A stretch of 64,000 bases of DNA from Raillietiella orientalis (Eukaryota), in contig JAYWIR010000012.1 of the NCBI GenBank assembly GCA_036172245.1, forward strand, positions 3,596,001 to 3,660,000. The letters are read 5' to 3'. Positions 1,951 through 63,723 of the stretch are shown piece by piece; the first letter of the stretch is position 1; every line of letters begins with the position of its first letter. The notes beneath the pieces were generated by a model that saw nothing but the letters and a program-made list of their open reading frames with translations, was not told where the DNA came from and searched no databases. The position numbers were made by a program, and so were the translations under genes.

Positions 1951-2016
1951 GGTCTGCTCCATTTCTCAGCAATAGTCTCCCAGAAAATACATACGTTTCA
2001 CACGATACTCCTCAAG
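1951..2016 (+). CDS. Probable last constant exon of an upstream lola-like BTB-ZF locus (locus A)
   Basis: Flanked by ttaattttAG and CAAG|GTAAGG. 66 nt, phase 1-1, open frame xSAPFLSNSLPENTYVSHDTPQ(G). Size, phase and the Q-G|gtaag ending mirror constant exon 3 of locus B (..DGSQ G|gtaag). Zinc-finger terminal exons follow it. Confidence 0.6.
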
Positions 2017-3059
2017 GTAAGGTTGAATTTTGTGCTTTGCATTTTTCTAATTTATTCTTTTCTTTACGAAATTATTTAAAAACGGTTTGAAATAAAGATT
2101 TGAAAATTGAGGTATGAATACTACTTATTTAATTTTTATCATTATTTTTTTTATATATATGCATATATATAAAAAAGATAAAAAGTTTCTACGCATTGTG
2201 AACACTTGATTGCCAAATTTCCAGCAAAACATCTTAATTGTCAGCTTTAGACAGATTGCCGCTTAATCAAAAGAACGCCTCCGTGTTCTTCCTCGCCGCT
2301 GAGACGAAAACGACGTGTCGTGGTGATGGCTGTTGCAATCTGCGCGTTGCAACTGCCTTGGATCTTTCCATTAACGCCGAACTCTCGAAGTATCACGTCT
2401 TGAAAAATTGGTTGCTGATTTGAAATCGTTAGTGGCCTCGGCATTTAATGATCAGTCAGTCAGCTGTTTCTGTTGCCCCGTTCGGCATTCCGTTCTCCTT
2501 TGTCAATTTGACTAAAGTAACGGCAAACGCAGGCGCATGTGATACTCTTTCGGGATGCTGAATTCGACCCTGCTCTTTCGTATTGATTGTCTTAGACTGT
2601 AATTTAAAACCCGAATGTTTTGTTTTCCCGTCGGGTTAGGTGGATATTTTGTGTTCCGCTCAATGTTTGACGTAATCCTTGTTCGTGAAACGTTCGATGT
2701 CTAGATTTTTTTCCACTTCGTGCGCTTCAACCTTGTAGATGTATCCCCCCCCTCCCCTCCTCCCTCCCCTCCCCCCCCCCTTTTTTTTTTAAACGTGCAT
2801 GCACGTGAACATCAATTGTATTATGTCTGTGTATACCTATGTAATCTGTATTCGTCTACTATGTGCCCTTATCATTAGCATCTTGCAGCTTTAGTTTCGA
2901 AACGTCAAGACGTAAAATCGATTCCTGTCTCGTGTTCTCGTGCACTTTAGGAAAGTCACGTGACGCCCGGTCTCCCTTGTGTGAGCCCGTGAAAGCGACC
3001 ACCTAGGAAGCTGCTGGGAGCCATCAGAAATAACAGGAAAAAGTGTAGAACATAAACCG

Positions 3060-3620
3060 TGTGACCCCTGCAAGTTCACGATTGTGGCGTCTTTTAGATC
3101 TTGTGGAGCTCACTTTAGCGCCGTGTACCTTAGTCAGGGGCCTCAAGGAACTTCGATTCAGCTTGATGTCCCCGCCGTAGCTTTTTGATTCGATCGTGTA
3201 GGAGATGAAAGCTGAAAAAAGCACGTTTCTGTAGATCTCTCCGAAGCGATTGCAGCGTGCGTGTTCGTTGGCATTCCGTTCCTCACTCGCACCCAGCAGT
3301 GAAGAAGAAGAAGAACTGTTGCCGCTGTCCCGTAATGCAGCTTCCCACCGCGAGCACCACCGCCGCCATCCGTCGCCAGCACGCTTGTCAGCCACAAGGC
3401 AAGGTTCCCTGTTGTAATAATCGTAGGGTGGGAGATTACGTGATTCGACGCAGTGTCGACCGAGGTTGGGTCAGAGGTTCAGGGAACAACCGCCGTGATT
3501 CCTGCAGTCCCAAGTGGTCAGTACCCAAGTCGCCCGGCACAGATTTCGAAGTGCGTGAAAATCGAAAGCGACGATTTTGGTAGGTTAAGGCGAGGCCTCG
3601 TGGCGTGTTGCTGTTGGTGG
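3060..3620 (-). mobile_element. Highly decayed non-LTR retrotransposon reverse-transcriptase remnant
   Basis: Minus-strand frames give RT-like motifs in the expected order: WLTSVL, RFGEIYRNVLFSAFI (QG..LSP.LF-like), YGGDIKL (YADD-like, about 3161-3180) and HGAKVSSTRSK (G.K.N..KS-like). Frameshifted. Confidence 0.4.
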
Positions 3621-5878
3621 CCACCATTCAAATAGTGTGTTGAAAGTACAGCTTGGGCTCGGTCGTTGCAGCCACTCGATGGGTGCTGTGGAAACCCTGT
3701 CTCGTGCCACGAACGGGAGTACATCTTTGCGACTAGGCACACCGGAATAGTTGTTCTCAGTGGTGGTGGTGGGGGGGGGGCAAATTGCTGACGTTTTAAA
3801 AAACAAACGAATCCTTTGCTGGTAACTTTCAGGTGATGAGTAGTCGTGTGTCTGATGGGGAAAGCAGCAGCAGCAGCAGGAAGATAAGACTTGTGTTAAA
3901 CGATCCGGTTTTGCTGCGAACACGGACAGTCGATCAGCTTAATAACGCATTTCCGAACCTTTCGAACGCTCTCTTTCTTTTTTCTTTTTTTTTATATTTC
4001 CTGGAAAGATACACGGTAATGGTTATTTGACAGATGCACTGTTTGTTTGCCCCTTTTTTGGCCGCAGGCTGTAAAACAACGTGTGTAATGGGCAGGACTT
4101 TGACGTTCTCTGCTGCGTGTGCGTGTGTGTACACAGAACAGTATACAGTTCCACTGGCTTTCACGAAATAAGAACCTTGTATGCGATTTCAGCTTTCCGG
4201 ATCACGCTGTTTCCAGAAAATTCTGAGCAACCGCCAAGTGTTTGTGTGTGTGTGGTGTGTATCAACATTTTTCCCCATTTTTATGATTTTTTTTTTTTTT
4301 TTGCATTTTTTTTGTTATTTTACGTTGTGAGTAAGTGCACAGAAAACGACCACATCTCGAAAACTCCGTATTCCTGAATCGCGTAGGTGTGTGTTCAGAT
4401 GTGCATGAATTCGTGTCCACCACCGACGTCATCACCCATTTTGTGTGCGCGCGCGCCGTTGCCGATGATTTCGAGGCTCTTCGCCTCAAGCAACTCACGT
4501 TGGTGTTTTGCGTGTCCGTTTGTGATTGCGTTTTCCCGTAGGAACAGTGTACTTTGAAGAAGGGGAAACGCCGGCGAACACGTGTTTCTTATAAAATTTT
4601 TTTTTTTTTTTTTTTCCATTTCGTGGCTGTTTTTTTCCCTCTCTTCCTCCCCCCCCCCTCCCTCATCCCATTGATTTTCTTATCCCTGCGGAAACTCTTT
4701 CGGGGTTTCGGGCTACAAAAATGTTTTGTGGGAAAACTAATTAATTTGTTGTAAACTCTCAAATACGATTCCCCGACGATATCCAGATGTGAAGTGCATG
4801 TTTAAAGACAAGGGGAGGCCAAGGCCTCCGTCTGCTTCGGGAAATAATGGTGAACATGCATGAAAAATGGTAACAGCGCTCTCCCGAATAATGAAGGAAT
4901 CTCTGTTGGTCATACGTTTTCCCCCCCCGGCAGAAAATGGTGTTTTGCATTAAGAAAGACGAGAGAGAGAGTACTGAATGCTTGTCTCAGACGAGAGAGG
5001 GTACGTGAAGAACTCGAGGAATGGATCGGACTGATTTCGAAGGAAGAGCCGAGCCACCAACTCTCTTCCAGCAGCCGTCAAGTGCTCTGAACGCAGTGGT
5101 CGAAAGCGGCTTGCCCTTTGGTACAGTTTGAAGAAACATATTTCAGATCCTTGACTGTGTACGGCGAGATCTCCAACTTGCTCGTGGCGGCGGTACGCGC
5201 GGTCGATCCACACAGCTCGTAGTTTGTATCCATTCGAAAATGTCGAAGAGTGTACGGAAATGCTCCACAAAGCTCAAGGTGGTGTGTGTGTGTCGCGATC
5301 CTTCTTCGCTCTCCCGCTGAATATTCTAGAATTTTTTCCTTTCGAAAGTTCCCGAATGAGCTGTCCGAAAACCAGTACGGTACACAATGTAAATGTTTAT
5401 TTTGATTCTGACTTTTTGTTCGTTTTGTTTTTGTTTTTTGTTTTTTGTTTTTTGTTTTTGTTTTTGTTTGTTTCCCCCCCCCCCCCTTCCGTGCTCCCGA
5501 GCATGCCTGTATGTGTGTGTAAGTTCAAGTTGGGCATTTCCGTATGTTTCCGTAATGGCGACACGATTTAGGTGTGTGTGTGTTGCAGGATGCATTCCCC
5601 CGGAACAGATTACGTGGTGATGCCCACCACCACACTGCTTCTTCCTTGACCGCAGCTTCCCACGTGGCGCGCGCTCTGTACACTGGAATTCGAAAAGAAA
5701 AAAAAAAACAAACAAACAAAAAAAACGACAGTGTTCGCAGTGATGTGTTTAATTGGCTTACTTTTAGTAGGTTATTTCAGTAGACTGTATATGGCGCGCA
5801 ATTTGTTACAACTCTTTATTTATCTTTTTATTTGTAGTTTGAGAAATGCATGGTGATTCTTTGTTTTAATCATTTCAG

Positions 5879-6186
5879 AGCAGAAGGAAGGTATTGAAAA
5901 TCCGCGGATACACATTTCTCAAACGATAACAGAATTGTATACCCGATATAGTATACCTGATAGAATGCTTCCAACATCAAAGCCGTGGAAGAACACTTAC
6001 ATTTGTCCGAAATGTGGCCGTGGGTACAGTGTGCCATCCACTTTAAATCGTCACTTGAGGATGGAGTGTGGAGTTGAGCCAAAGTTCTCGTGCGTCGTAT
6101 GCTCCACCAAATTTCGCCATAAACATCATTTAATGCAGCATTTGAATTTGCATTATAAATATTTAGTAGCTAATAAAGATCTTTGA
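5879..6186 (+). CDS. lola-like variable terminal exon A1, CCHC+C2H2 zinc-finger pair
   Basis: Acceptor catttcAG (5877-5878), phase 1. Encodes YICPKCGRGYSVPSTLNRHLRMECGVEPKFSCVVCSTKFRHKHHLMQHLNLH, then stop. Confidence 0.9.
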
Positions 6187-6608
6187 AAATATTCATTTAT
6201 CTTTTCTTATTCCATTAGACATTTTGTTTGTTTCTTGGATAGATTCGTTGAACTTTGGCCCAAATCTTTGTTTAGTAACTGACTTTGCATTATCAGAGCT
6301 GTTTTTCTTGACAGAAGAAAATTTGGATGTATTGTGACTTGCGAAGTGATGCGATGTAACTCTGAGTTTCTTGAAAATCTCCTTTTTGTGTGTGTGTGTG
6401 TTTTTTTTATTTATTTTGTTTGCTTTCTTTTTTTTTCTTTTTCTTTCTTTCCTCTCTCTCTCTTTTTTGTGTGTGTGTGTGTTTTTTTTTTTCCATTACG
6501 GGGAACGCAATTACTTTTTGTTTGTATTTGAATCACCATTTTTGCACATTTCAAAGTGTAGTATTCCAGGCATTATTAATTTTGAGACAGTAAATTTTTG
6601 GTTTTCAG

Positions 6609-6799
6609 GCATCAGGTCTGTAAATTCGCTGAAATTACATTGTCCTCGATGCGGCCGTCAATATCTGTGGAAATCAACTCTGGAGAGACATCTTAAATAT
6701 GAATGCGGGCAGAAACCTTCCTTCGCTTGTCATTTTTGTCAAAAAAAATTCAAACGCAAGGACTCTTTGCAAGATCACGTTATGGCATTGCATTATTAA
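6609..6799 (+). CDS. lola-like variable terminal exon A2, CCHC+C2H2 zinc-finger pair
   Basis: Acceptor gttttcAG, phase 1; an alternative in-frame acceptor would start the exon at 6570. Encodes LHCPRCGRQYLWKSTLERHLKYECGQKPSFACHFCQKKFKRKDSLQDHVMALH. Confidence 0.9.
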
Positions 6800-7060
6800 T
6801 GGAATGTCCGATTTGCAATCATGTTTAAATTGTACATTTCAATTAAAAAAAAAAAAAAAAAATTTTTTTCCTGAGAATAATGGTATTTTATACAATTCGT
6901 GGGCCTTTATTTTTTTTTTTCGTTATACAATTTGAAGGATTTGTGTAGCATGTTGTTCATGGTTTTTTTTTTTTGGTTTTTTTTCCCCTCCCCCACCCCA
7001 CCCGCCCAGCTACCCACCCACCCACCCACCCCCCCAAAAAAAAACAGAAAAAGCAAAAAA

Positions 7061-7062
<2 letters not shown>

Positions 7063-7091
<29 letters not shown>

Positions 7092-7127
7092 AAAGGAGAA
7101 AAGCAAAAAAATATATATATACACAGA

Positions 7128-7177
<50 letters not shown>

Positions 7178-7230
7178 TCGTATGTATGTATATGTATGTA
7201 TATATGTATATATATATATATATATATATT
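7063..7230. repeat. (AG)n and (TA)n microsatellites
   Basis: Directly visible dinucleotide runs. Similar runs occur throughout the window, e.g. 8695-8731 (GTT)n, 9889-9994, 10512-10582, 22196-22230 and 44655-44690. Confidence 0.95.
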
Positions 7231-7379: not shown

Positions 7380-7702
7380 CGCGGTGGGGTGAATGGGAAC
7401 AAGGGAGCTTGGATGATCCTGCCCCTTATATGTATCCGACGGTTCATATAACCGAAGGGAATGAAAATCACTGGGAAGACGAACACAAAACAAGACCGTT
7501 CATCTGCCCACGCTGTTTCCGAACATACAAAAAAGCCCGTTACTTGCGCCGTCATGTGATGGAAGAGTGCGGAGTCGAGCGCAAATACCAGTGCAGCATT
7601 TGCGGTTCCAAGTTTGCGCACAGTCACCACTTGCGGCGCCACCTGAAGAATGTTCATAGAGACTTGGATACCACGATACCCGAGCTAAAACCTGCGGTGT
7701 GA
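7380..7702 (+). CDS. lola-like variable terminal exon A3, CCHC+C2H2 zinc-finger pair
   Basis: Acceptor tctttttAG, phase 1. Encodes FICPRCFRTYKKARYLRRHVMEECGVERKYQCSICGSKFAHSHHLRRHLKNVH. Confidence 0.92.
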
Positions 7703-8694: not shown

Positions 8695-8732
<38 letters not shown>

Positions 8733-9493: not shown

Positions 9494-9720
9494 AATGGAA
9501 ACGGTTTGTTTGGTCGTCAGGGACTTGGCAGCCGTTAGTCAAAAAGTTTGAATGTAATCGTTGTGGCAGAAGATACACCAATCGAAGAAATATGTTACGC
9601 CATATGAAAAATGAGTGTGGCGTAGAACCGCGTTTTCAGTGTCCAACATGTAACAAGAAATTTGCATACAGGTTCTATTTGCAAGCACACATGAGATCAT
9701 GGCACGTACAGTCACAATAA
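9494..9720 (+). CDS. lola-like variable terminal exon A4, CCHC+C2H2 zinc-finger pair (absent from ORF track)
   Basis: Acceptor tctttatttttAG, phase 1. Hand translation: EWKRFVWSSGTWQPLVKKFECNRCGRRYTNRRNMLRHMKNECGVEPRFQCPTCNKKFAYRFYLQAHMRSWHVQSQ*. The stop overlaps AATAAA (9716-9721). Confidence 0.92.
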
Positions 9721-9883: not shown

Positions 9884-9932
<49 letters not shown>

Positions 9933-10061: not shown

Positions 10062-10297
10062 GTGCAAGGCGGCTTGAATGGAATAGTTTTCTGGTTGCAG
10101 ATATAAGAGAATATAACTGCAAAAGTTGTGGCAGAAAGTATCGCAAAGCGAACACGTTACGAAGGCACCAACGCTACGAATGTGGTAAACTGCCGAGTTA
10201 TCAGTGCCGTGTCTGTAGCAAGCGGTTTTCGCATTCGCATCAGTTAAAGCGACACCTTAACAGAATCCACTGTGAAACCACAGTCCACGTGACGTGA
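10062..10297 (+). CDS. lola-like variable terminal exon A5, CCHC+C2H2 zinc-finger pair
   Basis: Acceptor tatttccAG, phase 1; an alternative in-frame acceptor would start the exon at 10101. Encodes YNCKSCGRKYRKANTLRRHQRYECGKLPSYQCRVCSKRFSHSHQLKRHLNRIH. AATAAA at 10715. Confidence 0.9.
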
Positions 10298-13526: not shown

Positions 13527-13723
13527 GTTGTCCGGAATATTCCTGTTTCGACTGCGGAAGAGTCTACAGGAATGTAAGCACTCTGAAACGTCACCGGATG
13601 TACGAGTGCGGGAAAGAGCCCCTGCACCAATGCGGCTTCTGCTTAAAGAAGTTTAAGCAGCCGTACAATCTGATACGCCACATTAACAGCCTCCACAAGC
13701 GGTTGATTCTCGCAAAAATATAG
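13527..13723 (+). CDS. lola-like variable terminal exon A6, CCHC+C2H2 zinc-finger pair (absent from ORF track)
   Basis: Acceptor tttttcgttacAG, phase 1. Encodes GCPEYSCFDCGRVYRNVSTLKRHRMYECGKEPLHQCGFCLKKFKQPYNLIRHINSLHKRLILAKI*. AATAAA at 13725-13730. Confidence 0.92.
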
Positions 13724-38798: not shown

Positions 38799-38966
38799 AT
38801 GGAACAACAATTTTGTTTACGCTGGAATAATCATCAGAGTACTCTTATCACAGTCTTAGATAGTTTATTAACTAATGAAAGGCTAGTAGATGTTACCTTA
38901 ACTGCAGAAGGACAAATGATAGGAGCTCATAAGGTAGTTTTATCTGCCTGTAGTCCATATTTTGAG
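38799..38966 (+). CDS. lola: Locus B constant coding exon 1: N-terminal half of a Tramtrack-type BTB domain, longitudinals lacking-like
   Basis: [56 protein letters not shown]. The [15 protein letters not shown] start is characteristic of Lola. Acceptor at 38786-38787 lies upstream of the ATG; donor GAG|GTAAAT. Confidence 0.95.
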
Positions 38967-39012: not shown

Positions 39013-39634
39013 CAAATTTTTTCCCGTTGTGGTGATAAACACCCTGTGATATTCCTAAAAGATGTCCGTTATGACGATCTTAAAAGTTTATTAGACTATA
39101 TGTATAGAGGAGAAGTGAATGTGTCACAAGATCAACTACCTGTACTCATTAAAACTGCAGAAAGTTTAAAAATAAAAGGTTTAGCTGATAACACCAATGA
39201 TAAGAAAAAATCCTTTTCTGGTTCTGAAAAAAACAGAACTGTATGCAATATTCCAACTGATAGCAAAGGATGTGATGGATTTGAATGCCCCTTTAAACAA
39301 CAAGAGAATAGTAATTCACCATTACCCAAAAAGCCAAAAAAAGAACGAAAAAAATCTGGAGACAGTGTCCCTATAGAGGACAGTGATAGTCGGGAAGCAA
39401 CTTGTTTTCTTCCTTCATCTCCATCTTCTCAACCTTTGGTTATTGGTGCACAGATCTCTATTACCGAACCTGCTACTCCTGGGGAAGTCCACTCTGATCC
39501 TCTTGGAGTTGAGAGTCCTGTTCAACCAGATCATAATTTTAAAGAAGAACCAATTGATGATGATGAGTGTAGAGAATGTGAACCTGAAACAGATGAAGGT
39601 GATGGTGACTACTCACATTTATCCGAAGGAGAAG
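39013..39634 (+). CDS. lola: Locus B constant coding exon 2: C-terminal half of BTB plus linker
   Basis: Follows a 46-nt GT-AG intron. Encodes [59 protein letters not shown], a basic NLS-like [10 protein letters not shown] and an FKEEP SUMO-like motif. Phase-1 donor GAAG|GTACAT. Confidence 0.93.
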
Positions 39635-39685: not shown

Positions 39686-39769
39686 GATTACCTCCTTGGT
39701 CAAATATTACTAATGCAAATTGTTCTAAAGATGCTAACCAATTTTCAGTCAATCAGGATGGATCTCAAG
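39686..39769 (+). CDS. lola: Locus B last constant exon (phase-1 donor for the variable cassette)
   Basis: Follows a 51-nt intron. 84 nt, GLPPWSNITNANCSKDANQFSVNQDGSQ(G), donor CAAG|GTAAGA. Confidence 0.88.
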
Positions 39770-40292: not shown

Positions 40293-40534
40293 CCACTGGT
40301 CCTCATTTGATTTCAACGGAATTGCGAAGTGCAATGCCTTTTGTATGCACTGCGTGCGGTAGACACTACAAGCACAAATTTACCCTCATGCGGCATGTGA
40401 ATTACGAATGTGGCATCCCTCCCCAGTTTGTCTGTCCCTTTTGCCTGCTCAGCTTCAAACGCCAATATCATTTGCGAGATCATATAAAGAAGTTGCATCC
40501 TAAACTTCTTGATAGCACACCAGGTGGTCAATGA
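40293..40534 (+). CDS. Variable terminal exon B1, CCHC+C2H2 zinc-finger pair
   Basis: Acceptor ctggtttcAG, phase 1. Encodes FVCTACGRHYKHKFTLMRHVNYECGIPPQFVCPFCLLSFKRQYHLRDHIKKLH. Confidence 0.92.
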
Positions 40535-40669: not shown

Positions 40670-41079
40670 AGGGTAATAGTGCAGAGAGATTGTTTGCCAG
40701 TCGAGATGTCATGTTGCCTTTTCCCACGAAACCCATCAGTCAGCTTGGTAACAGGGAAGTTCGAGAACTGCTTCCACGCTACCTGCGTTTCTTGTCACCC
40801 ATACGAACCCGGCATATGGGCTATGGCAAGCCAGAATACCGACCCATATTCTGGCCTTCTCATATTCCCTGGCATAATATCTTCAAAGTACCTGATGGTA
40901 TGCAGCCGGGACAGTGGACTGAGTGTCTGCGTGAGGTTCTTAGTGCGTGTGTCCGGCAGGCTGGGTTCGATCCTGAGTCCTATTACATGTATGGGTTACA
41001 GTTGCAACAAGGTAAAGGTTGGATTAACGTTTACAGCAAGACTGCAGATCAATGCTCACACAACGTTTTTCAGCCATAG
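40670..41079 (+). CDS. Variable exon B2 encoding an NRF-1/Erect wing (EWG)-like DNA-binding domain
   Basis: Acceptor ctttcctattttcctAG, phase 1, in frame with ORF 40690-41079. Motifs GYGKPEYRPIFWPSHIPWHNI and WTECLREVLSACVRQAG parallel the NRF-1/EWG signatures GWGKESCKPIWWPEDIPWANV and WTQALRTIVKNCYKQHG (recalled, not searched). AATAAA at 41280. Confidence 0.8.
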
Positions 41080-42045: not shown

Positions 42046-42302
42046 ATGCACCACTGGTACCCTCGTCTCCTCATCCAGCTTTTATGTTAACTGTTCACTA
42101 TTGCCGTCGTTGCTGGAAAACTTTTCAAAACGAGGCGAACTTAAGCTATCACAAGCGCTATGATTGTGGTGTGGAGAGACGCTTCTCTTGCATTCATTGT
42201 GCAGACGGGAAAAAGTTTAAACGAAAGTATCATTTAAACCGACATTTGAAACAAGTTCACGGCGTCCAAGATACGGTGATTCCTTTCAACAGTTCCTTTT
42301 GA
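42046..42302 (+). CDS. Variable terminal exon B3, CCHC+C2H2 zinc-finger pair
   Basis: Acceptor attatttcAG, phase 1. Encodes HYCRRCWKTFQNEANLSYHKRYDCGVERRFSCIHCADGKKFKRKYHLNRHLKQVH. AATAAA at 42510. Confidence 0.9.
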
Positions 42303-42796: not shown

Positions 42797-43035
42797 GTCT
42801 GAGTGAAGAGTGGATTAAGTCTCCAGAAGACGATTCAAATATAAATAGAATTTATACTTGCGAGCGTTGTAGTAAGGCTTACAAGTTGAACCGTGATCTA
42901 CATAGGCACCGAAAGTGGGAATGCGGGGTTGAACCGCAGTTTCAATGCGTTTTGTGTCAGAAGAAATACAAGCGAAGATATCTGCTCACGAAGCATATAG
43001 CCCGAGTTCATACCGAAATTGAGGTTCTCGATTGA
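42797..43035 (+). CDS. Variable terminal exon B4, CCHC+C2H2 zinc-finger pair (absent from ORF track)
   Basis: Acceptor cccctttttttctAG, phase 1. Encodes GLSEEWIKSPEDDSNINRIYTCERCSKAYKLNRDLHRHRKWECGVEPQFQCVLCQKKYKRRYLLTKHIARVHTEIEVLD*. AATAAA at 43128. Confidence 0.92.
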
Positions 43036-43556: not shown

Positions 43557-43795
43557 GATCAGCAATCTTAACACAAGGAATGGCGTATCAACCTGCGTTA
43601 CCCACGAAGCCTTTTCATTGCCACAAGTGCCCAAAATCCTATAAAAATAAATCGCATTTGTATCGCCATCTCCGTTATGAATGTGGCGTTCCTCCACAGT
43701 TTGCGTGCTCTTTGTGTGGTTATAAATTCAAGCACAAAAGTCATTTACAAGCACACATGATGATTCATAGGAATATAATGGTAGAGCATCATTAA
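43557..43795 (+). CDS. Variable terminal exon B5, CCHC+C2H2 zinc-finger pair
   Basis: Acceptor ccacattatAG, phase 1. Encodes KPFHCHKCPKSYKNKSHLYRHLRYECGVPPQFACSLCGYKFKHKSHLQAHMMIH. Confidence 0.92.
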
Positions 43796-44988: not shown

Positions 44989-45744
44989 ACGAATGGCTTT
45001 GAGTTTTTTTTTCTCTCTTTTTTTTTTTCCTTTTCTTTTTTTTTTTTAAAGAAAAAAAAAGTATTCACGATGGCTGGTGTATGAGAAAGTCGTTTTTATT
45101 TTTTTTTTTTTGTCTAAAAAAAAAAAACAAAACAAAAAGGGAGAGAGGGAGAGAGAGAGAGGAAAGGAAGGGAAAGGAAAGAAAAGAAAAAAAAAAGAGG
45201 AGTCAATTCCCAGTAATGTGGCGGTGGCCCGCCGTGCAGAGAGCGTTTCGGTTGAAGAAGCAATGCGAAACAGTTAGGTACATTACATCTCGCTTGGCTC
45301 CCGTGCTTTCGACGGCTAGGTCGGCATTTCTAGGAATGGGTTTAGCACGACGTTTAGCATCCGTTGGCATCGGAAGATTCCTCCCCTCCCCTCCCCTTTT
45401 TTGTTTTTGTTTTTGCCCGCCCACCACATTCTCTAAGACGGATTGTGTGTACATAGGGTTTTTTTTTTTTTTTGTGTGTGTGTGTGTGTGTGCGGGTGTT
45501 AATCTTCCACTCCATCTCTTGCGCCTAGGTATAACGAGCTGTGTAGCAAAAAGCATAATAAACGGAATTTTTTTTCTTAATGCAGGATTTTCATTTATTT
45601 GATCCCGTTTCCGGATCCACCTTAAAAGCAAAACAAAACAAAGGTATCCAGCAGGTTTCATTCATTTGTATCCCATAGCGTGCACGTGGTGTGTTCGTAG
45701 GCTCCGCACACGTATCCGATGCAAATACTCTTTCTCGTTTCTAG

Positions 45745-45932
45745 GTCCATTTGTTTGCTCCGAGTGCAGTCGTTGTTACAAACAGAAAAACCTCTTACGA
45801 CGCCATCTGAAATCACGAATGCAGCAGACACACAAGTCGTTTGCTTGTACGGTGCGTTGTAAAACGTTTGCGCACAAATTGAGACTGACCCGTCGTGTAC
45901 GAAGTGTTGTCCACGGGATGTCCGCAAAGTAA
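45745..45932 (+). pseudogene. Decaying variable zinc-finger exon B7 (open frame, zinc ligands lost)
   Basis: Good phase-1 acceptor tttctcgtttctAG. Encodes GPFVCSECSRCYKQKNLLRRHLKSRMQQTHKSFACTVRCKTFAHKLRLTRRVRSVVH. The GAA TGC (EC) codons are present but shifted out of frame, and finger 2 lacks its first His. Confidence 0.75.
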
Positions 45933-46174: not shown

Positions 46175-46392
46175 ATGCTAGATTTGGAAGCCACGTAAAA
46201 TTTCACGAGAAACCATTTATGTGTGATACATGCGGAAGAAGATATCTGCGGAAAATGACTTTAAAACGACATGTCGTTTATGAATGTGGTGGCCGGAAAT
46301 GCTTCCGATGTCCTATTGAGAACTGCAGCAAAACATACACGCAGAACCAAACTCTCAGGCATCATATGACGCTCTTCCATCGATTAACATGA
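46175..46392 (+). CDS. Variable terminal exon B8, CCHC+C2H2 zinc-finger pair
   Basis: Acceptor gaatttcAG, phase 1. Encodes FMCDTCGRRYLRKMTLKRHVVYECGGRKCFRCPIENCSKTYTQNQTLRHHMTLFH. AATAAA at 46409. Confidence 0.9.
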
Positions 46393-47090: not shown

Positions 47091-47395
47091 GAGATTGGTT
47101 ATTAGGTTTTCATTTCCTAGCTGAACCGGTGAACAATGATATTGATAGTAAAATGCTAAGCTCAAGTGGTGTGACCTGGTATTGCTGTGACCGATGTGGA
47201 CGGCGCTACACACAAAAGCCTAATTTGAAGCGACACCAGCGCCTCGAATGTGGCGTCGAACGCAAGTTTCAGTGTAAACAGTGCGGTTTGAAATTTGTCC
47301 ACAAACATCACCTCAAGTCACACATGAGCAGTGTTTGCGGAGCGAGGAGTCAAATATTGTCCGGCATGACATGTGTCATCAAGAAATGCCCTTGA
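47091..47395 (+). CDS. Variable terminal exon B9, zinc-finger pair
   Basis: Branch point TACTAAC (47044-47050), then polypyrimidine tract and cAG, phase 1. Encodes YCCDRCGRRYTQKPNLKRHQRLECGVERKFQCKQCGLKFVHKHHLKSHMSSVC. AATAAA at 47891. Confidence 0.92.
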
Positions 47396-48372: not shown

Positions 48373-48665
48373 AGACATCGGACGAAAAGCTGAAATTACA
48401 CACTGTTCAAATCGATGAAAGCGCTTTCACCGTAGTCCAGGCGGGGGTCCACTACTTTTGCCCAAAGTGCAATCGGCCTTACTTGTTGCGGAAAAGTCTC
48501 AGCAGGCACCTTCGCTACGAGTGCGGAGTGCAAAAACAGTTCTGCTGTCAAGTGTGTGGCCGGTCGTACACTCGGAGAGCGTCCATGGTCAAACACGTCA
48601 CGAAACACGTTCCGTTTACTTTGCAGAAACAGCCCGAGGTGCAAAGTGATGCGAGCATGCAATGA
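48373..48665 (+). CDS. Variable terminal exon B10, CCHC+C2H2 zinc-finger pair
   Basis: Acceptor gtattccAG, phase 1. Encodes YFCPKCNRPYLLRKSLSRHLRYECGVQKQFCCQVCGRSYTRRASMVKHVTKH. AATAAA at 48778. Confidence 0.9.
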
Positions 48666-49165: not shown

Positions 49166-49371
49166 GTCACCAGCAAAGCAGGGCAGGGTTCAGCAACAGT
49201 TTCATTTGCGAGAGGTGCGGAAAAAGCTACAAGTATAAGTTTCTGCTTAACAGGCACCGAAAATATGAATGCGGCAACAGAAAATGTTTCCCATGCGATC
49301 AATGCCCCAAGGCATACAGACAAAGCTACACCCTGATACGTCACATGAAACAGATGCACGAGACGACCTAA
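49166..49371 (+). CDS. Variable terminal exon B11, CCHC+C2H2 zinc-finger pair
   Basis: Acceptor ctcgtttcAG, phase 1. Encodes FICERCGKSYKYKFLLNRHRKYECGNRKCFPCDQCPKAYRQSYTLIRHMKQMH. Confidence 0.92.
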
Positions 49372-50049: not shown

Positions 50050-50240
50050 CTGAAGTGGGAGATGGCCCATTCATTTGCCGGAGATGTGGCAAGTACTATC
50101 CGTTCAAAACGAGTCTCAACCGACATAGGAAATTTTCTTGCGGAGTTTATCCACAGTTTGAGTGTTACATCTGTTGGAAACGATTCAGTTACAAGCATGA
50201 CTTAAAAAGGCATCAAAGAAATTGTCATTCTCATAATTAA
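50050..50240 (+). CDS. Variable terminal exon B12, CCHC+C2H2 zinc-finger pair
   Basis: Acceptor tttcttttcAG, phase 1. Encodes FICRRCGKYYPFKTSLNRHRKFSCGVYPQFECYICWKRFSYKHDLKRHQRNCH. Confidence 0.92.
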
Positions 50241-52513: not shown

Positions 52514-52716
52514 GGATGGATTATAGCTTCTCCTGCGACGAGTGTGGCCGATTCTATAAAACCAAGTACCTACTAAAGCGGCACACGAAATACGAATGTG
52601 GGAGTAAAAAACTGTTCACTTGCAGGGAGTGCCTCAGAAACTTCTCCCGCAGCGATGCACTCCTCCGTCACCTTAGATCAGTTCACAGGATTTCGCAACC
52701 TTATCTGCCTTCGTGA
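52514..52716 (+). CDS. Variable terminal exon B13, CCHC+C2H2 zinc-finger pair
   Basis: Acceptor cttgtgtttcAG, phase 1. Encodes FSCDECGRFYKTKYLLKRHTKYECGSKKLFTCRECLRNFSRSDALLRHLRSVH. AATAAA at 52957. Confidence 0.92.
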
Positions 52717-55865: not shown

Positions 55866-58505
55866 GTTTGTAAGTACATAATAATTTCAAGTTAAGGAAA
55901 TCTGAGGAAGCTGGGCGTCATTACGCCTCGGCATATCCATAACTGCTTTGACAACCTCAAGCTGTGCACGAAGGAAATGAGAAAGGCACACAATATTGCA
56001 AAAACTTTGAACATTCAAGCAACACCAGGACAACTAAGACACAGGGAGCAGCAAGCAGTGCAAAAATAAGGATTGGGTTTGTTCCTGTGAACATATACAC
56101 CTTATCTTATCTTTGCGAGCTTGTATCAATTTTCCTTTCATTATGTCAGAAAAACAGAACTTGACTGCAGGCGAGCTCAAAAGGTAAAGCCATCTTGAAA
56201 AGTAAAATGCCACATACCTCTTGAATGGTAGAGAAAGATGCCATTCAAAACAAGCTATTTCTTGACATGTATGCTATTGAGTTACAGAAATTCATACTTA
56301 GTGCACATGAAAAATTGATTTGAAACTGCCTGGGAGCCATTGATCTTCAAACTCTCTGAGAATACCTCTGAGAAAATTCATACTGATGGAGACATGTGAG
56401 ATATCCACTCCTTCTCATAAGTCTCTAATTACGTTTTCCTTCTACACTGAGCTTTCAGTTCATACCCTCATCTCTGCTAACGTGAAAGCTGACACTTGTG
56501 ACAAATGTCACACGATGAAAGATGCTTAAATCACGACTGCAACTTTCTTAATTTGAAAATTTCCGTGAGTTCGTATTTTTCCCTTTTTAAATTCGATCAC
56601 CGTGGAGAGTGATAATGCTGCATTGAGCATTACCTATCTTCGGGCACTATGCACATTTCAGTGAGTGAAATCCTTTAAATTATTTTTCCAACCGAATTCT
56701 TCACTTTTGCATTACATGGCTACACCATAAGAGATTTCACATTTTGCTGCTCTGGAATATATAAATGTTGAAATAAAATCAACTTAGAAATCGTTTACAT
56801 ATACATACATACACACACAGAACAAAACTTTGGGGATTGTAAGGATTAATGAAAAATGAAAACGAGTGTGTTTGTGAAAATAGGAAATTATAATTGCCAA
56901 TTCGAGTTCGCATGTCAAAGAAATGAACTGAAAGTTTTCGATAGCAGCATCTTTTTTTCGTTTTCCTTTTTTCGTATTACTCATCTAATACGGGAGAAAA
57001 TATGAAATAGTTTATAGCCAAATAGAAAATGCCTGATTAACTCTGGCATATTTTTCGAAATTTTCTCGAAAAGTGCCATTGCCAAGCCATGAAAAGGAAT
57101 CCATCTCGGAAAGATTTAGTAGCGTTATTTTTGCAAAATTTTCGACATTGTTTTGGAAAGTAATGACTGGCAATTTGGTGATGCCTTAAGTATTGATTAA
57201 AGTCAAACATCTCGCCAAGTTTCTGCAGAGTTGATGCTGTAGTCAATGTGAGTGTAGTTTTCATCATTGTCGAAAATAATATAATTCTTGAGTGTAAGCG
57301 TGATGTTGTACTTATGTGGTAATCTTATTTTTTCCGTAAAAGCTACCAGCGTAATTTGTGTAGTGTCATAGGAAAACAAAAGAGTGCTATGTTCCCCCCC
57401 CCCCTCTAACATAATAGTAGTTTGTGAGTTACAGCTGCAGAAAACTCATTACGCCTTTAGATACGTGGAATTAAGAAAACACAAATGAGTTCCATGGAAT
57501 AAGTGGTAGTGTTTAGGATTGTGTGCGTGTCTGTGTGTTTTAACTTCATGGTTGACATTCAGCGTTGAACCACGGAGATCTTAAACTGTCTTGCGTGATG
57601 TGTGCTTGGATGTTTCCTTTGTAAGGAGGTTCGCATTTGCGTATGATATGGAGACAGTTCGAGGACGGAAATCTTCAGTTTAAACTTGGTGCAGCTGCTG
57701 CTAGGTGTCTGCTAGTAATTCTCTGTTGATTTCCATGTATTCGTCTGTGCATTATTCAATTGTGTATTAATTTTGAAGTTTGCCAATATGCGTAGTCGTT
57801 CTAGAGTCCAGCAAGGGAAACCAAACGTGAATTTCAAATTACTATTATTAGTTTGTAGGAATTCTTGAGCCATGTTTTGTGAAAAAAAGATGAGCTTGCT
57901 ATACTTGCGTTTCTTTTATAAGGACGAAACTTGCATCGTTTTTGCAGAAACAAAAACAGGAAACAGAAAGAATTAGTCAGTGAGATAATTTATGGATCAA
58001 GCTTACTTTGACCAAGAATATCGTTAACCAATAGGCAAATTTTCTGGCAAAATTTAAGTAATGGAGTCTACTTTCTTATTTTGTGGTGGTTACGGGTTAA
58101 GTTGGCAGGTTTTATTTTGTAGATTGTGTTGACAGATGGAATGCCAGCTTCCCGGTGTTTATTAAAAAATTGTGAAACTGAATGTTCCTTCAAATTAATA
58201 GAAGTGATTCAGTTAAATTTGTGAGATTCTATTTGTATTTTTACGCAGTGCTACTTTGATAGTAAAGACTGGTTAAATGATTCTAGTGTTTTTCTGGAAT
58301 ATTCCTCTCCATATGTATTATATTAAGTAAAAAATTCATTGGAGAATGTTCAGTAGTGATGCGTAATTCTTACAAACAAATACAGTCAATGCACACACAT
58401 ACAGTGAAATCTAGTGATTTAGGTTCTTATGTTAAGTTATTTGTTTCATTGAAATCTTGTTTTCTTTCACTAAGAAATTATTAATGCTTTTCAGAAGATC
58501 ACAAA

Positions 58506-58673
58506 ATGGAGCAACAGTTTTGTTTGCGCTGGAATAATCATCAGAATACAATCTTAAGAATGCTAAGTGATTTATTTTCAAATGAAAAGTTGACCGATGT
58601 GGTCCTTAGTGCTGAAGGTCAAATGATTAGTGCTCACAAGGTTGTGTTATCAGCATGTAGTCCATATTTTGAG
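58506..58673 (+). CDS. Locus C constant coding exon 1: BTB N-terminal half, lola-like paralog
   Basis: [56 protein letters not shown]; 42/56 identical to locus B by hand count. Donor GAG|GTAAGC at the same position as in locus B. Confidence 0.95.
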
Positions 58674-58718
58674 GTAAGCAACCATGTTGCAAGGATTTTT
58701 CATTTTATTTTTTCCTAG

Positions 58719-59241
58719 CAAATTTTTGCGTATTGTAGTGAAAAAAACTTGGTTGTACTCCTTAATGATGTGAGCTTTGAAGATCTCCGCAGCTTGTTGG
58801 ACTTTATGTACTTGGGTGAAGTTAGTGTATCACAAGAAAGGTTATCCTGTTTTATTAAAACGGCAGAGAATTTAAAAATCAAAGGACTTGCACATACAAG
58901 TGATGAAGGAACTAAACTCGTTTGCCAACCTGAACACTCATCCAGTGCTACAAAGAGAACAACAAATCAGGGTCCTTCTTCACCAAAAAAACAGTGTTTT
59001 TTCAAAGCTGAATTTACTGAAGAAACACCTGAGGGTGTTACTAGTGAATATTCAACTCAGGTTCCTGGATCTGAAGAACCTGTGTTTTCCAGTTCTTTAT
59101 TAGTCTCTGCACAAAAAGATGACAAACAGTTTACATGTCTGCCATTTATCATTGAACCCAAAAAGGAAATGTCAGATGAAGATATGGATTCATTTAATGC
59201 ATTGGAACAAAATCCATATCCTCTTACACATGAATTAGATG
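58719..59241 (+). CDS. Locus C constant coding exon 2: BTB C-terminal half plus linker
   Basis: Follows a 45-nt intron. Encodes QIFAYCSEKNLVVLLNDVSFEDLRSLLDFMYLGEVSVSQERLSCFIKTAENLKIKGLA... Phase-1 donor GATG|GTAAGA. Confidence 0.93.
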
Positions 59242-59290
59242 GTAAGATCCCATAATAGATCCGGAATGCTATCTTATGTTTTCAATTTAG

Positions 59291-59362
59291 CAAATTTAGC
59301 GAACACATCTGCTTATGAGGAAAATGGATCCTGCTCACAAGAAAATCCAGAAGCTGCTAATG
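59291..59362 (+). CDS. Locus C last constant exon
   Basis: Follows a 49-nt intron; an alternative in-frame acceptor would start the exon at 59300. 72 nt, ANLANTSAYEENGSCSQENPEAAN(G), phase-1 donor AATG|GTAAAT. Confidence 0.8.
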
Positions 59363-62300
59363 GTAAATTGGCATACAAATGGACACAATATCATGCTTGT
59401 GTCAAGTAATCCAGATGAACTCTTATATTAAACATAATTCAGCCACATTAAGACAGATGCAAATATCTTGGTTGTGTAGGCTATTTTGTTGATATTGTCT
59501 TGGAAATAACAAGCACTGGAGAGAATTGGCGAATGCAATGCAGGCATTGGGAAACAAGGCTCAGGGCAAAAAAAGTCAGGTTGACGAGTTCTGTCAGTTG
59601 TGCTTATCTTGATGGTGTCAAATAATTTGCATTCTTTATGAGCCATGAGCAATTTGCCATCATTTTGGATTTTTAAATAGGAGTTCTCAGTAGGAGAAGG
59701 GTTGCTCAATTGGTGTTTGTCTTTCAAATGAATGTATAAGTGAATTGTAAACCTTGATAAGTGAGTGATATTTGACTCATGCTTCGTTTTTTTTTTGGCA
59801 TTTGTCATCGGAAAATCCATTCTCTGAAACCTTTGATCTGATGGATATTGAATTCAGTAGTGCTTATGAAGGTGAATGTTAGTTTTCTTGTTGGAAGTGC
59901 AAAATGTGTGCTTTTGGGGGAATTTTAGTAAAAATCAAGGGAATCAATTTTGGAAATCAGAGTAACAACAATTTTTAAGTTTTGGTATATTTTGTTAGAG
60001 CTAACAAATTTGCATGTGTTTATTATTATTCCTTTTTTGAAAATTTGAAATCAAACAAAGAAATCTGTATAATCATTGTTTTCAGTTTTTGTGTTTATAG
60101 CTTGATATGCTGTGCAAATCAACAATTTATTAATTGCTGCAATTTCTTGAAAAATGTAGAACAAAAAAAGATACACTTTCAGTCATTTCTTAATCCAATC
60201 ATTTTATTTTCCGAAATTCTCATACATATGAGTTTAAAGAATGAATAATTTTTTAAACAAGTGTAAGTTAGTGGCAGCATAATACTACTGGTATTCATAC
60301 CATGTTTTCTGATGCAGATGTTTTGCAAATATGTGTAATTGTATTCAGAATGGTTCACATTTGCTTAGCTGAAATGCTGTGTTGAATTCTTTGTAGAATT
60401 CCAATTTCTCTGATTCGTAGCTGTTGTTCCCCCCATTTAAGGTATTACTTTATTAAATTAAGATTATGAAAATTACTGTCTTGGATCTTTGTAGATTGCG
60501 GTTATATGCTTGCCTGCAGTAAGCAGCAGTGCATTCTACAATTCTTATCTCAAAAATGATTTCATTCAGTACTAAGGGTTTTGATCATTCATCTGTTTAA
60601 ATAGTTGAACAGCATTTCGCGTTTTGTATCAGAATGTTGGACAAAAAATTGTTTGTGGAATAATGCCATGTCTATTTTTGTCATCTTCAAAACACATAAG
60701 AATATTTTGTGATCATTAAGTATACGTGGGAAAGATAATGTGATTAAATGGAAATGTATGGAACCATGCATAAAACAATTTTTGTAAACTGGCTGTTTTA
60801 TGTACTTAAAAGTAGAAAAGTATTGGTTACATCACGAAAGGATCTTGTAATCAGTATGAAAGTTCTCCTAATGGAGCTGAAAATGCTTTTTTTTGTAAAT
60901 ATTGAAAGGCAGACATTATAAATACACTTATTTTGTAAAATGGATTTTTTTATTTTCATGTTGGTCTGTTATTCATGCAGAGCAATTTTCTTGCTTTCAG
61001 TATTTAATCTATGAACATTATTCATGTATATTAAAAACAACTTTTCGTACTTTCAACAAAGTCCTAAGCATTTTCTGACAGTACTTAATGGATTTTATCA
61101 TTTCATGAAAACAAGTCATTGAAATTGTGATTACAATTTTGATATGGTTTTTTGTTATTCCCTGCTTCTCATTTGTGCAATGGTTGGTTTCATACTTATA
61201 AGAAATGAAAATTCTTTTATTCAATATCCATTAGCTTATGCTCACAGAAGTATGTGTTAGAAAATACATAGCGTAAAGTGTATGCTCTTGGTAATGTTAA
61301 TCAAGGATGTGTGCTGAATTGTATTTGATGTTCTTGTTATGAGTCCTGTTTGAAACCTTTTGTTCATTAATTTTTTTTAAATTACATTTTAGCTGTTCCC
61401 CAAATTTTGTGGACCTATGTTTAGCTTATGTATTATCAACAGTAAAAAAATTCATTCAGTTTTTGTAGAATAATGTAAAATATGATTGTAGTCAGAAATG
61501 GTGGTGCACAGAACAGTAAAGCATGATTGTGTGTTTCAAATGAAGCATTTTTTTTTATCTGTTGTCATAGTTATACTGTTAAAGTGAAATTGAATTTCTT
61601 TACCTAACCATGATGTTTGAAAATTGATTTTTCTTGCAGTTTACAAACACCATTACTTTTCGGTCAAGTAATATGAAATTGGCATGTTACAGGCAGGCAT
61701 GTACAATTGTGTGAAGCAGTTGGCGCATGTTTCATGTTATTCCACCGTATTTACGTGACATTTTATTGCTGTACATGTGACTATGAAAAAACACACAAGT
61801 TTCCGTTTGATGTTTACTTGTAATTTTAAAAACTGGTATGCACGTGGAGTTATTATAAGGACTTTTCCGTTTAACGAGAAAGAAATTCTGAACGTAACTG
61901 CAATAATCATGATTTCTCTCTGTTCTAAACACAAAAATGTATTTCTACTAGAGATATTGAATGTTAATTATATAAAGACTTGGAAATACCAACTGGATGC
62001 AGGAAAGTGAAACTCGTAGGAAGAAGCAAGCGATAAAATTCATTTTCTAGCCCAAGTTTTTCACCATTTTAATTACAATGATCAATAAGACAACAATCTT
62101 TTTTTAAAAAAGGTCAATAATTTAATGAAATGGTGAGTGTGTTAAGAGAGGTGACGACAGGTAATACCAGTCACTGTAACAGAATGATATTTATTTTGCG
62201 GAGTTTGGAATAACTGATCATTGTACGATACATGATTGATATGCTTGATGTTTGGCAGATGTGCGAAATTGTAATAATAATGTTAGATTTTAATTTAATT

Positions 62301-63415
62301 TAGTTATGCGTGAGAAGTATGATTTCCATGTATGTATTATAAAAATTGATGCTTTTTGGCCATGTAATTGTGGCGATTTCGCAATTGTGCAAGACATAAT
62401 TTTTCAGTGGTGAAAATTATTGCAATAAATTATGCGCAAAGTAGGAACAAAATCATGGAAAATCCTTGAATCCATAAATTTGATATTTACAAATGTTAAG
62501 CATTCATTTATAGTTTCCAAGCTTACACATCTGAAAACAAGTATCCAAAAATACAGAACAAAAGGTGTACAATCAACATAAAACATTATTACCACAGAGA
62601 TAATAGTAGTATATTGTAAGTCATCGATTTTATTATGTAATTTGGAATTACTTACGATTCATTAGTTGAGAGAAGCAATTTTTTTTTTTTTTTTTTTGCA
62701 AATTTTAAAGTATGAGTATGTATATATTTATGCAGTCATAAATCCCCAAACAATAGGGAAAACAAGCTTACATCATCCTAGAATGCTATTTGTTATGAGG
62801 ATTTTGTACAAAGGATTGCATTCCTTGAATTAGCATACTGAAAACAAAGCTAAATTATAGTGTCCACAATTACTGGAAAGTTTCTGATTGATTCTATCAA
62901 GTAAAGACTGTATGTATAAGTTTCTGATGGTATATTTGGTATTAATAAATCCAATTTATGTTTAGATATACTGCTCAGAATTTGTGATTTACAAAGTTTG
63001 TTATCTACACCATATAAGTCCAATATCCTTTTGCGCAGTTATTCTTGAGATGAAAATCGGAGATGTAGGAATGGGTCAGGGAATAACTGGAGGTATTATA
63101 GGGTGTTTGGTCCGGTTGCTAGTCAGGTAAGAGATAGGAATGATGGTAATTTGATTTTACTTTGAAATAAGTAAACATAATTGTGTATAACAATTGAATT
63201 GCCACAATTGAATGTTGCCTTTGTGTATAGTGAGTCTCCAATTTGCAGCAGTGAGTTGTTGATGGTGGTTAAATATTTGATGTTACAATTTGCGGAGTTA
63301 CTTCCTTGAAATTCACATGATATCTTTAGATTATTATTTTTTTTTTTTTCTTTTTTCTTTTTTTAATAATGCTGAAACAGGATTGTTATTTGTTTCTAGT
63401 TTTATTGTTTTACAG

Positions 63416-63723
63416 ATAGGTGGAACAGCACAGCTGATGTTGACCAAAATGCTTTGCTGAAACCGTTTCATTGTTACAAGTGCCCAAAGTCTTATAAATT
63501 TAAATTTGATTTATATCGACATCTTCGTTATGAATGCGGAGTAGAGCCCAAGTTTTCATGTGATGTTTGTGGGACCAAATTCAGGCACAAGTTTCAGATC
63601 AAGTTGCATATTATGAAACACGCAACATGTGCACAAGAATATTTTCCCAAGGTCTGTTTATTGTTTCTGCATTTCACATTGATTTTTAGTGATTTTAATA
63701 GCATTAGATATTTTATAAAGTAA
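63416..63723 (+). CDS. Variable terminal exon C1, CCHC+C2H2 zinc-finger pair
   Basis: Acceptor ttgttttacAG, phase 1. Encodes KPFHCYKCPKSYKFKFDLYRHLRYECGVEPKFSCDVCGTKFRHKFQIKLHIMKH. AATAAA at 63861. Confidence 0.92.

Follow-up and report, generated by a model that had tools for sequence, protein, structure and literature searches.

A probable tandem array of lola-like BTB loci, each with its own cassette of alternative terminal exons

The lola gene is the textbook case of a single gene that encodes ~20 transcription factors through the choice of one end-piece. A 64,000-nucleotide stretch of DNA (hereafter, the window) raises the question of whether this entire design can be copied in tandem and, if so, whether the neighboring copies keep to their own end-pieces. 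The best explanation of the window, which we consider fairly probable on the basis of its sequence, is that it carries tandem lola-like paralogs, each picking among its own 3' exons; at least two such copies, and probably three, lie next to each other within the 64,000 nucleotides. The same explanation takes the source of the array to be, with comparable probability, a pancrustacean-type arthropod. Exons, domains, phases, open reading frames (ORFs), and paralog divergence are direct observations.

Constant regions of loci B and C

Two complete constant regions with TTK-type BTB domains are encoded on the + strand, at 38799-39769 (locus B) and 58506-59362 (locus C), with the following exons:

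38799..38966, +, locus B first coding exon: ATG, FCLRWN, first half of BTB (Pfam)
39013..39634, +, locus B exon 2: second half of BTB and linker (Pfam)
39686..39769, +, locus B last constant exon, phase-1 donor (splice signals, open frame)
58506..58673, +, locus C first coding exon: ATG, FCLRWN, first half of BTB (Pfam)
58719..59241, +, locus C exon 2: second half of BTB and linker (Pfam)
59291..59362, +, locus C last constant exon, phase-1 donor (splice signals, open frame)

All four candidate ORFs, representing both halves of both copies, match the Pfam BTB family (PF00651) with E values from 9e-8 to 5e-11, and no BTB sets beyond B and C were detected in the window by tblastn. In both copies, the sequence FCLRWN occupies residues 5-10, in agreement with the N-terminal FxLRWN motif that is described as defining the TTK-type BTB domains (PMC11426971). 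The likely 5'-UTR acceptors set the start of the first coding exon at 38788 in B and at 58495 in C. The two regions follow one plan: a 168-nt first coding exon, an intron that follows the same codon and splits the BTB domain, and a short third exon ending in phase 1; since the exon plans are identical, the constant region was duplicated.

The BTB domains of B and C are identical in 78 of 120 residues, 256 of 360 bases (71%), and 64 of 120 third codon positions, and their linkers are barely alignable. Judging by these sequences, the two copies are old paralogs and not assembly duplicates; the preliminary description of this DNA had likewise considered an assembly artefact unlikely. In a search of protein collections with exon 2 of locus B, the best matches, which are named lola, span only the BTB part (72-75% identity), and none of the matches is a protein from the same organism. 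In the BTB tree, B and C fall into a polytomy with the clade of lola and another clade, made up of proteins from sawflies and wasps (variously named lola, tramtrack, bric-a-brac, or mod(mdg4)-like), with 7 of the 19 branches open. By analogy with fly BTB domains of the TTK type (PMC11426971), the formation of BTB heteromers is plausible.

Terminal exons and locus A

A scan of all six frames with a loose two-finger pattern identified 18 ORFs in which a C2HC finger precedes a C2H2 finger; they all lie on the + strand, in groups of 6 (5857-13720), 11 (40202-52713), and 1 (63400-63720). The - strand contains 8 single matches to the loose pattern, none with a second finger or with the ECG linker. 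The predicted terminal finger exons are as follows:

5879..6186, +, A1 (pattern, Pfam zf-C2H2)
6609..6799, +, A2 (pattern, acceptor, alignment)
7380..7702, +, A3 (pattern, acceptor, alignment)
9494..9720, +, A4 (pattern, acceptor, alignment)
10101..10297, +, A5; an alternative phase-1 acceptor gives a start at 10062
13527..13723, +, A6 (pattern, acceptor, alignment)
40293..40534, +, B1; an alternative phase-1 acceptor gives a start at 40221 (Pfam)
42046..42302, +, B2 (pattern, acceptor, alignment)
42797..43035, +, B3 (pattern, acceptor, alignment)
43557..43795, +, B4; closest relative of C1, 66% identity
44771..44988, +, B5 (pattern, acceptor, alignment)
46175..46392, +, B6 (pattern, acceptor, alignment)
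47091..47395, +, B7 (pattern, acceptor, alignment)
48373..48665, +, B8 (pattern, acceptor, alignment)
49166..49371, +, B9 (pattern, acceptor, alignment)
50050..50240, +, B10 (pattern, acceptor, alignment)
52514..52716, +, B11 (pattern, acceptor, alignment)
63416..63723, +, C1; any further C cassette lies beyond the window (pattern, Pfam)

The pattern scan, tblastn, and alignment thus agree with the earlier count of 18 intact finger exons (6+11+1) on one strand. All 18 retain the invariant residues C, C, H, C, G, C, C, and H in the alignment, and each ORF has its stop 1 to ~45 codons beyond the second finger. A tblastn search with the 18 finger domains hit 19 places, all on the + strand, the additional one being a decayed copy that was absent from the earlier list:

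45603..45929, +, decayed finger exon, ECG linker and several zinc ligands lost (tblastn)

Its Pfam zf-C2H2 score of 20 bits is under the cut-off of 25.2.

Identity among the finger domains ranges from 26 to 66% and is no greater within cassettes than between them. The cassette labels do not cluster in the finger tree (54 columns, 20 of 39 branches open), in which the well-supported groups comprise one local B clade and pairs of single B exons with exons from other species. Accordingly, of the earlier suggestion that the whole module was duplicated, the part concerning the constant region is supported by the common exon plan of B and C, whereas the part concerning the cassettes finds no counterpart in the grouping of fingers; neither tree fixes the order of the duplications. 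Of 60 database relatives, 23 have the C2HC-ECG-C2H2 pair at their end; many of these are named isoforms of longitudinals lacking from shrimps, a mantis shrimp, damselflies, and Daphnia. Many-fingered gene models, together with zinc-finger proteins of vertebrates, dominated the finger-profile search, from which no orthology was obtained.

In addition to its 11 finger exons, locus B contains a terminal exon of a different kind, which was likewise missing from the earlier list:

40670..41079, +, 12th B terminal exon, NRF1-type DNA-binding sub-domain without fingers, phase 1 (Pfam)

This exon matches Pfam family PF10491 (E value of 1.5e-8) and the PDB chain 8k3d_A of NRF1 (E value of 6.5e-9), has the phase-1 acceptor TTTTCCTAG|, and is in frame with the B constant region in a virtual join. 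The match covers only positions 126-203 of the 213 positions of the Nrf1_DNA-bind domain, which as a whole includes a dimerization and NLS part; these positions correspond to residues 22-102 of the 109-residue chain 8k3d_A. An Atlas search with this exon gave weak leads, with the best score of 0.88 and the Nrf1 cluster in 8th place at 0.82. The exon exemplifies a non-finger DNA-binding domain that could fill the same terminal-exon slot.

The six A exons are located 5' of both BTB sets, so their cis-splicing would require a constant region farther upstream, and for this reason we infer a third one. Its candidate last exon is the following:

1951..2016, +, candidate last constant exon of the upstream locus A, 66 nt, entered and left in phase 1 (splice signals only)

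This segment has an AG acceptor and the donor CAAG|GTAAGG, and is the sole strict candidate (with an acceptor rich in Y, a donor that is strong, and a frame that is open and has phase 1 on entering and on leaving) in positions 1-5800; one other was found in ~35 kb of other spacer. By tblastn, no resemblance to the third exon of either B or C was detectable, and BTB is absent from positions 1-1950, unlike the equivalent stretch before the last constant exon in B and C. The BTB exons of locus A would therefore lie upstream of the window, which starts 5.9 kb upstream of A1. Of the three or more loci claimed by the preliminary description, two are complete and the third is presumptive.

Splice phase and the choice of a terminal exon

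The donors at 2016, 39769, and 59362 all read G|GTAAG or G|GTAAA, and the constant exons of B, like those of C, join without stops and end one base into a codon. A crude acceptor score selected a phase-1 site in 14 of the 18 finger exons (~6 would be expected by chance), and in each of the other 4, a strong YAG site in phase 1 lies no more than a few dozen bases away. Phase 1 throughout, as proposed earlier, thus fits all three donors and the acceptors of the finger exons, and the proposal that constant regions are in frame with any terminal exon holds for B and C: all 38 virtual joins of these two with the 19 terminal exons are open up to the exon's own stop. AATAAA or ATTAAA is found 5 to 896 bases past the stop of every terminal exon, which counts for little in AT-rich DNA. 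Alignment of the introns that follow the three donors revealed no common motif, promoters of B and C were not located, and Rfam gave no matches in the window. A Pfam scan of 150 ORFs of at least 120 aa yielded a single match, itself a B exon, with no recognizable gene between the loci.

These features suggest a mechanism in which the constant region of each gene would be short, with three coding exons that encode a TTK-type BTB multimerization domain and a linker and end in a phase-1 donor. Downstream, a series of alternative terminal exons would follow, all of them having phase-1 acceptors and separate stops and probably also separate poly(A) sites. In any one transcript, the constant region would be joined to a single terminal exon, so that each locus would yield a family of transcription factors with a common oligomerization domain and differing DNA-binding ends. 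The predicted repertoire comprises 11 finger pairs and one NRF1-type domain for locus B, at least one finger pair for locus C, and six finger pairs for locus A, with the BTB exons of the latter placed upstream of the window.

Other readings of the array need to be weighed against that of tandem paralogs. It is scarcely credible that the paralogs are an assembly artefact, consisting of collapsed or duplicated haplotypes, and nothing in favor of this reading came to light. The divergence between the B and C copies, with 71% base identity in the BTB regions and linkers that barely align, refutes this idea, and no long repeats, direct or otherwise, were found in the window (the 20 repeat families listed, out of 26, are all of low complexity). 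Alternatively, the finger ORFs could be internal exons, belonging to one or several zinc-finger genes with many fingers, given that the 18-exon profile matches models with 2-7 pairs per protein (such as a 1000-residue ostracod model with 7 pairs). We regard this as very improbable, because each ORF stops 1 to ~45 codons past the second finger and, in RNA-supported annotations, the named lola isoforms have a single pair at their end; the many-pair models themselves look like terminal exons chained together by gene predictors. A further alternative dispenses with the third constant region, making the A exons either relics or, as in mod(mdg4), acceptors for trans-splicing from B or C; it is consistent with the absence of BTB from 1-1950 and with the dissimilarity of 1951-2016 to exon 3 of B and C. 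However, the six A exons all retain their zinc ligands, an open frame, and a phase-1 acceptor, relics in this array are exemplified by the decayed exon at 45603-45929, and the window simply stops 5.9 kb upstream of A1, so this reading, too, appears improbable.

More attention is due to the earlier proposal that constant regions are spliced to the terminal exons of other loci, through cis read-through (from A to B or C exons and from B to C exons) or through trans-splicing, which could also operate backwards. Phase 1 is common to all donors and acceptors, the 38 of 38 open virtual joins would permit such exchange, and the exons all share one strand, the loci having no recognizable gene between them. 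In addition, fly lola is reported to employ both cis- and trans-splicing (PMC1947980, PMC4667647), and wide heteromerization is described for the fly TTK-type BTB domains (PMC11426971). However, descent from one gene predicts the same phase in all loci, so a phase inherited from the ancestor is expected either way and frame compatibility is no evidence for cross-splicing. Moreover, read-through transcripts would have to pass many terminal exons and poly(A) signals before reaching the next locus, a 25-kb spacer separates A6 from B, and the donors have no common downstream motif. On balance, cross-locus joining seems unlikely. The same doubt applies to a two-level combinatorial system of transcription factors, in which three BTB scaffolds would exchange at least 19 ends and assemble into BTB hetero-hexamers, and in which the NRF1-type end, unreported with TTK-type BTB domains, would be placed on that scaffold. 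Under the preferred reading of tandem lola-like paralogs, splicing presumably proceeds as outlined above, with each locus relying mainly on its own cassette and locus A having a BTB domain of its own.

Relation to known systems

In Drosophila lola, as predicted for the window, an N-terminal common region of the TTK-type BTB is combined with a unique terminal exon, chosen from many. The majority of the fly ends are described as containing C2HC and/or C2H2 fingers, and a few as having none (PMC1947980, PMC11426971). In the window, a C2HC finger is followed by a C2H2 finger in 18 of 18 finger exons, the same pair that stands at the end of named lola isoforms in other arthropods, and the phases, acceptors, and frames, as read from the DNA alone, fit a common region with many terminal exons. 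The array differs from fly lola, a single locus with ~20 ends, in having at least two, and probably three, tandem constant regions, each with a cassette, and is further distinguished from it by the NRF1-type end. Drosophila mod(mdg4) likewise has a set of BTB common exons and alternative terminal exons, ~30 in number, that encode a DNA-binding module (PMC4667647). However, mod(mdg4) has FLYWCH ends, some of them on the opposite strand, which forces trans-splicing, whereas none of the 300 ORFs scanned in the window matches FLYWCH and none of its 19 terminal exons is on the - strand.

A copepod transcript and a metagenome record also encode an N-terminal BTB domain, a linker, and an NRF1-type sub-domain, and their alignment with the exon at 40670 begins just past its predicted splice junction. 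Their BTB domains start with FLLKWH instead of the FCLRWN of the window's copies and therefore represent another BTB subgroup; no finger isoforms of these two genes were seen.

In two barnacles, 29-39 lola-like genes are reported, as compared with 2-17 for other pancrustaceans, along with duplications specific to lineages (PMC8220330, PMC11331182). Multiple lola-like genes per genome are a feature that the barnacles have in common with the window, but the relevant passages of these reports count gene models, without describing tandem loci with separate terminal-exon cassettes. Some of the Lola "genes" so counted may be single terminal exons. It appears that cassettes of this kind are mis-modelled as zinc-finger proteins with many fingers, which can inflate "Lola gene" counts and calls for caution in annotation. 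The locus offers a natural test bed for how one terminal exon is chosen, whether adjacent paralogs cross-splice, and how new DNA-binding modules enter cassettes. The expansion of the Lola family in crustaceans is already published, and the tandem cassettes are a variant on a known design, that of lola, here copied in tandem, with constant parts that have diverged and a splice phase that is kept over at least 19 end-pieces.

Constant regions and family assignment

The Pfam BTB profile matched four plus-strand ORFs, which form two sets with one common plan, and tblastn with both spliced constant regions revealed no further BTB in the whole window, in agreement with the two full constant sets of the preliminary description. 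These sets belong to the tandem loci B and C.

Constant exons of loci B and C
38799-38966, + strand, locus B first coding exon (ATG, then the FCLRWN motif)
39013-39634, + strand, locus B exon 2 (BTB set)
39686-39769, + strand, locus B last constant exon (84 nt)
58506-58673, + strand, locus C first coding exon (BTB set)
58719-59241, + strand, locus C exon 2 (BTB set)
59291-59362, + strand, locus C last constant exon (72 nt)

The first coding exons of both loci are 168 nt long and end at the same codon, the last constant donors lie one base into a codon (G|GTAAG in B, G|GTAAA in C), and the joined constant frames are stop-free over 291 (B) and 254 (C) codons. The two BTB domains agree at 78 of 120 residues; at the DNA level, 256 of 360 bases are identical, as are 64 of 120 third codon positions. 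Their linkers are scarcely alignable, and a repeat search found no long direct repeats in the window. An assembly artefact as the source of the two copies, already doubted in the preliminary description, is thereby ruled out, and B and C are old paralogs. Likely acceptors, as read from the sequence, are located 4-5 codons before the ATG of both first coding exons (38788 and 58495). Both are phase 1 with the frame open into the BTB, so that, if the final constant donor of the preceding locus were spliced to either, an in-frame BTB-linker-BTB protein would result; the phase match at both sites may be due to chance (about 1 in 9 with two cases).

The best relatives of B exon 2 are shrimp longitudinals lacking isoforms, a family-unnamed mantis shrimp protein, and damselfly lola isoforms, with 70-75% identity over the BTB part only; no R. 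orientalis proteins were among its database matches. The C2HC-ECG-C2H2 finger pair forms the ending of 23 of 60 relatives. TTK-type BTB domains are described as being defined by FxLRWN and are reported from arthropods only; they assemble into hexamers, and those of flies form heteromers widely (PMC11426971). A BTB phylogeny, suggested in the preliminary description, placed both loci beside the lola clade in an open polytomy, C on a branch of length 0.33 and B on one of almost zero length; the loci are therefore referred to as lola-like rather than as lola orthologs.

Terminal finger exons, the probable locus A, and proposed splicing between loci

A strict C2H2 pattern gave 17 matches in six frames, all on the plus strand. 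A looser two-finger pattern recovered, in six frames, the same 18 intact plus-strand exons counted previously (6 + 11 + 1), each encoding a C2HC finger joined through a short linker (ECG in 16, DCG and SCG in 1 each) to a C2H2-like finger; the 8 loose single matches on the minus strand, none with a second finger, are attributable to chance. When the 18 exons are aligned, no substitution occurs at the ligand positions C, C, H, C, C, H or at the G of the linker; all three finger exons tested matched Pfam zf-C2H2. A tblastn search with the 18 finger domains revealed one additional place. It lacks the ECG linker as well as several of the zinc ligands, scores 20 bits with zf-C2H2, under the cut-off of 25.2, and seems to be left over from a local duplication of exons.

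Terminal finger exons
5857-13720, + strand, six finger ORFs of locus A, A1-A6 (two-finger pattern)
40202-52713, + strand, 11 finger ORFs of locus B, B1-B11 (two-finger pattern)
45603-45929, + strand, decayed finger exon directly before B6 (tblastn)
63400-63720, + strand, one finger ORF of locus C, C1 (two-finger pattern)

In every finger exon, each AG from the upstream stop to the first cysteine was surveyed, and a crude acceptor score (pyrimidine tract plus Y at -3) ranked a phase-1 site first in 14 of 18 exons, against about 6 expected; in B4, B6, B11, and C1 there is a strong phase-1 acceptor nearby. When the B and C constant regions were each joined virtually to every one of the 19 terminal exons (the finger exons and the NRF1-type exon discussed below), all 38 products remained open to the exon's own stop, so the constant regions and terminal exons are indeed frame compatible, as had been claimed.

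Both BTB sets are downstream of the six A exons, whose cis-splicing therefore requires a constant region further 5'; the existence of locus A is well inferred. The candidate exon 1951-2016 is flanked by a T-rich acceptor and the donor CAAG|GTAAGG, and its frame is open, with phase 1 on entry and exit, in line with the preliminary description. It is the only candidate passing a strict filter in 1-5800; other spacer, about 35 kb in total, yielded one more, and this puts a chance origin at odds of roughly one in six. Searched by tblastn with the spliced constant regions, 1951-2016 shows no detectable resemblance to exon 3 of either locus B or locus C, and no BTB exon is present in the preceding 1950 bases, in contrast to B and C. 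Judged by its splice signals, 1951-2016 is only probably the last constant exon of locus A.

Frame compatibility is the sole point in favor of splicing between A, B, and C, and descent from one gene predicts a shared phase anyway. A read-through transcript from A would have to cross a G+C-rich spacer of 25 kb besides six terminal exons, and one from B would have to cross 12 terminal exons; intron alignment detected no common motif downstream of the three donors. It appears improbable that constant regions are joined to terminal exons of other loci, whether by read-through or by trans-splicing.

Origin and setting of the array

The earlier proposal of a whole-module duplication holds for the constant region, which was certainly duplicated; the terminal exons show neither an identity excess within cassettes (rows of alternative terminal exons of one locus) nor clustering by cassette. 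The finger domains are pairwise 26-66% identical, the closest pair being C1-B4 (66%), followed by C1-A1 (55%). A1, B4, and C1 share an H-x3-H ending, and one mantis shrimp exon is the best outside match of all three (56-63%). The finger tree, built on only 54 columns, contains one local B clade, (B11,(B6,B9)), with support 97/97 and a weaker A clade, (A3,(A5,A6)), with 83/81; single B exons pair with those of other species (best supported, B8 with an ostracod exon, 95/85), and cassette labels do not cluster on it (41 of 200 shuffles equally good). These identities and pairings indicate that some exon types predate the R. orientalis lineage and others come from local duplication.

The window is eukaryotic, with a very uneven G+C content (0.30 to 0.70). 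A 24-kb block (12000-36000, G+C 0.57-0.70) separates the AT-rich A cassette from locus B, and a milder rise (0.49-0.52) is seen at 50-54 kb, within the B cassette and upstream of locus C. Long ORFs, reaching 776 codons and with a high content of R, G, P, and A, are abundant on either strand of the block; neither Pfam, run on more than 100 of the block's ORFs of at least 120 aa, nor Rfam gave a match. The observed/expected CpG ratio is about 1 in the block and 0.48-0.66 in the AT-rich segments 40000-44000 and 56000-64000, versus about 1.0 in the rest of the window.

Lola family expansion in crustaceans has already been published, with 29-39 gene models in barnacles versus 2-17 elsewhere (PMC8220330; PMC11331182); no description of tandem lola loci with separate cassettes was found in the open-access literature. 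The top matches of the finger profile were database models with 2-7 finger pairs per protein. Such models with lola-type pairs (P0062, P0064, P0067, P0072, and others), from an ostracod, ants, planthoppers, and others, are annotated as generic zinc-finger proteins. They are probably terminal exons of lola-like cassettes chained by gene predictors, so published Lola gene counts may partly reflect chaining.

An NRF1-type terminal exon in locus B

Among 150 further ORFs of at least 120 aa on both strands, a Pfam scan gave a single match, Nrf1_DNA-bind, in the plus-strand ORF 40648-41076 between B1 and B2 (E 1.5e-8; 35.1 bits, cut-off 23.5; profile positions 126-203 of 213). A strong phase-1 acceptor, TTTTCCTAG|, sets the exon start at 40670; the stop is at 41077, with AATAAA about 200 bases downstream. 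The exon can be aligned with chain 8k3d_A (109 residues) of human NRF1 at E 6.5e-9. This exon and the decayed exon 45603-45929 are additions to the preliminary list. With its 11 finger exons, locus B thus has 12 intact ends, one of them non-finger. Fly lola is described as producing, through cis- and trans-splicing, 20 isoforms, three of them without fingers, that share a BTB region and differ in their ends (PMC1947980; PMC4667647).

No published description of a BTB plus NRF1-type architecture was found in a literature search, including the main text and 12 of the 14 supplementary files of PMC11426971. A full library search with the exon returned 54 relatives, of which 51 were scanned with Pfam (three proteins of <160 residues were left out): 41 contain Nrf1_DNA-bind, and 6 contain both this domain and BTB. 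In four database proteins of 736-1057 residues (P0182, P0184, P0186, and P0200), between one and three NRF1-type sub-domains precede the BTB, and the pattern used found no FxLRWN-type BTB start in them; these proteins represent either a different architecture or gene models in which a cassette is run on into the following BTB gene. In 2 of the 6, a copepod Trinity transcript and a metagenome record, the BTB is at the N-terminus, as in locus B. In both, the NRF1-type part aligns from just past the predicted 40670 junction, and the BTB starts with FLLKWH, versus FCLRWN in the R. orientalis loci.
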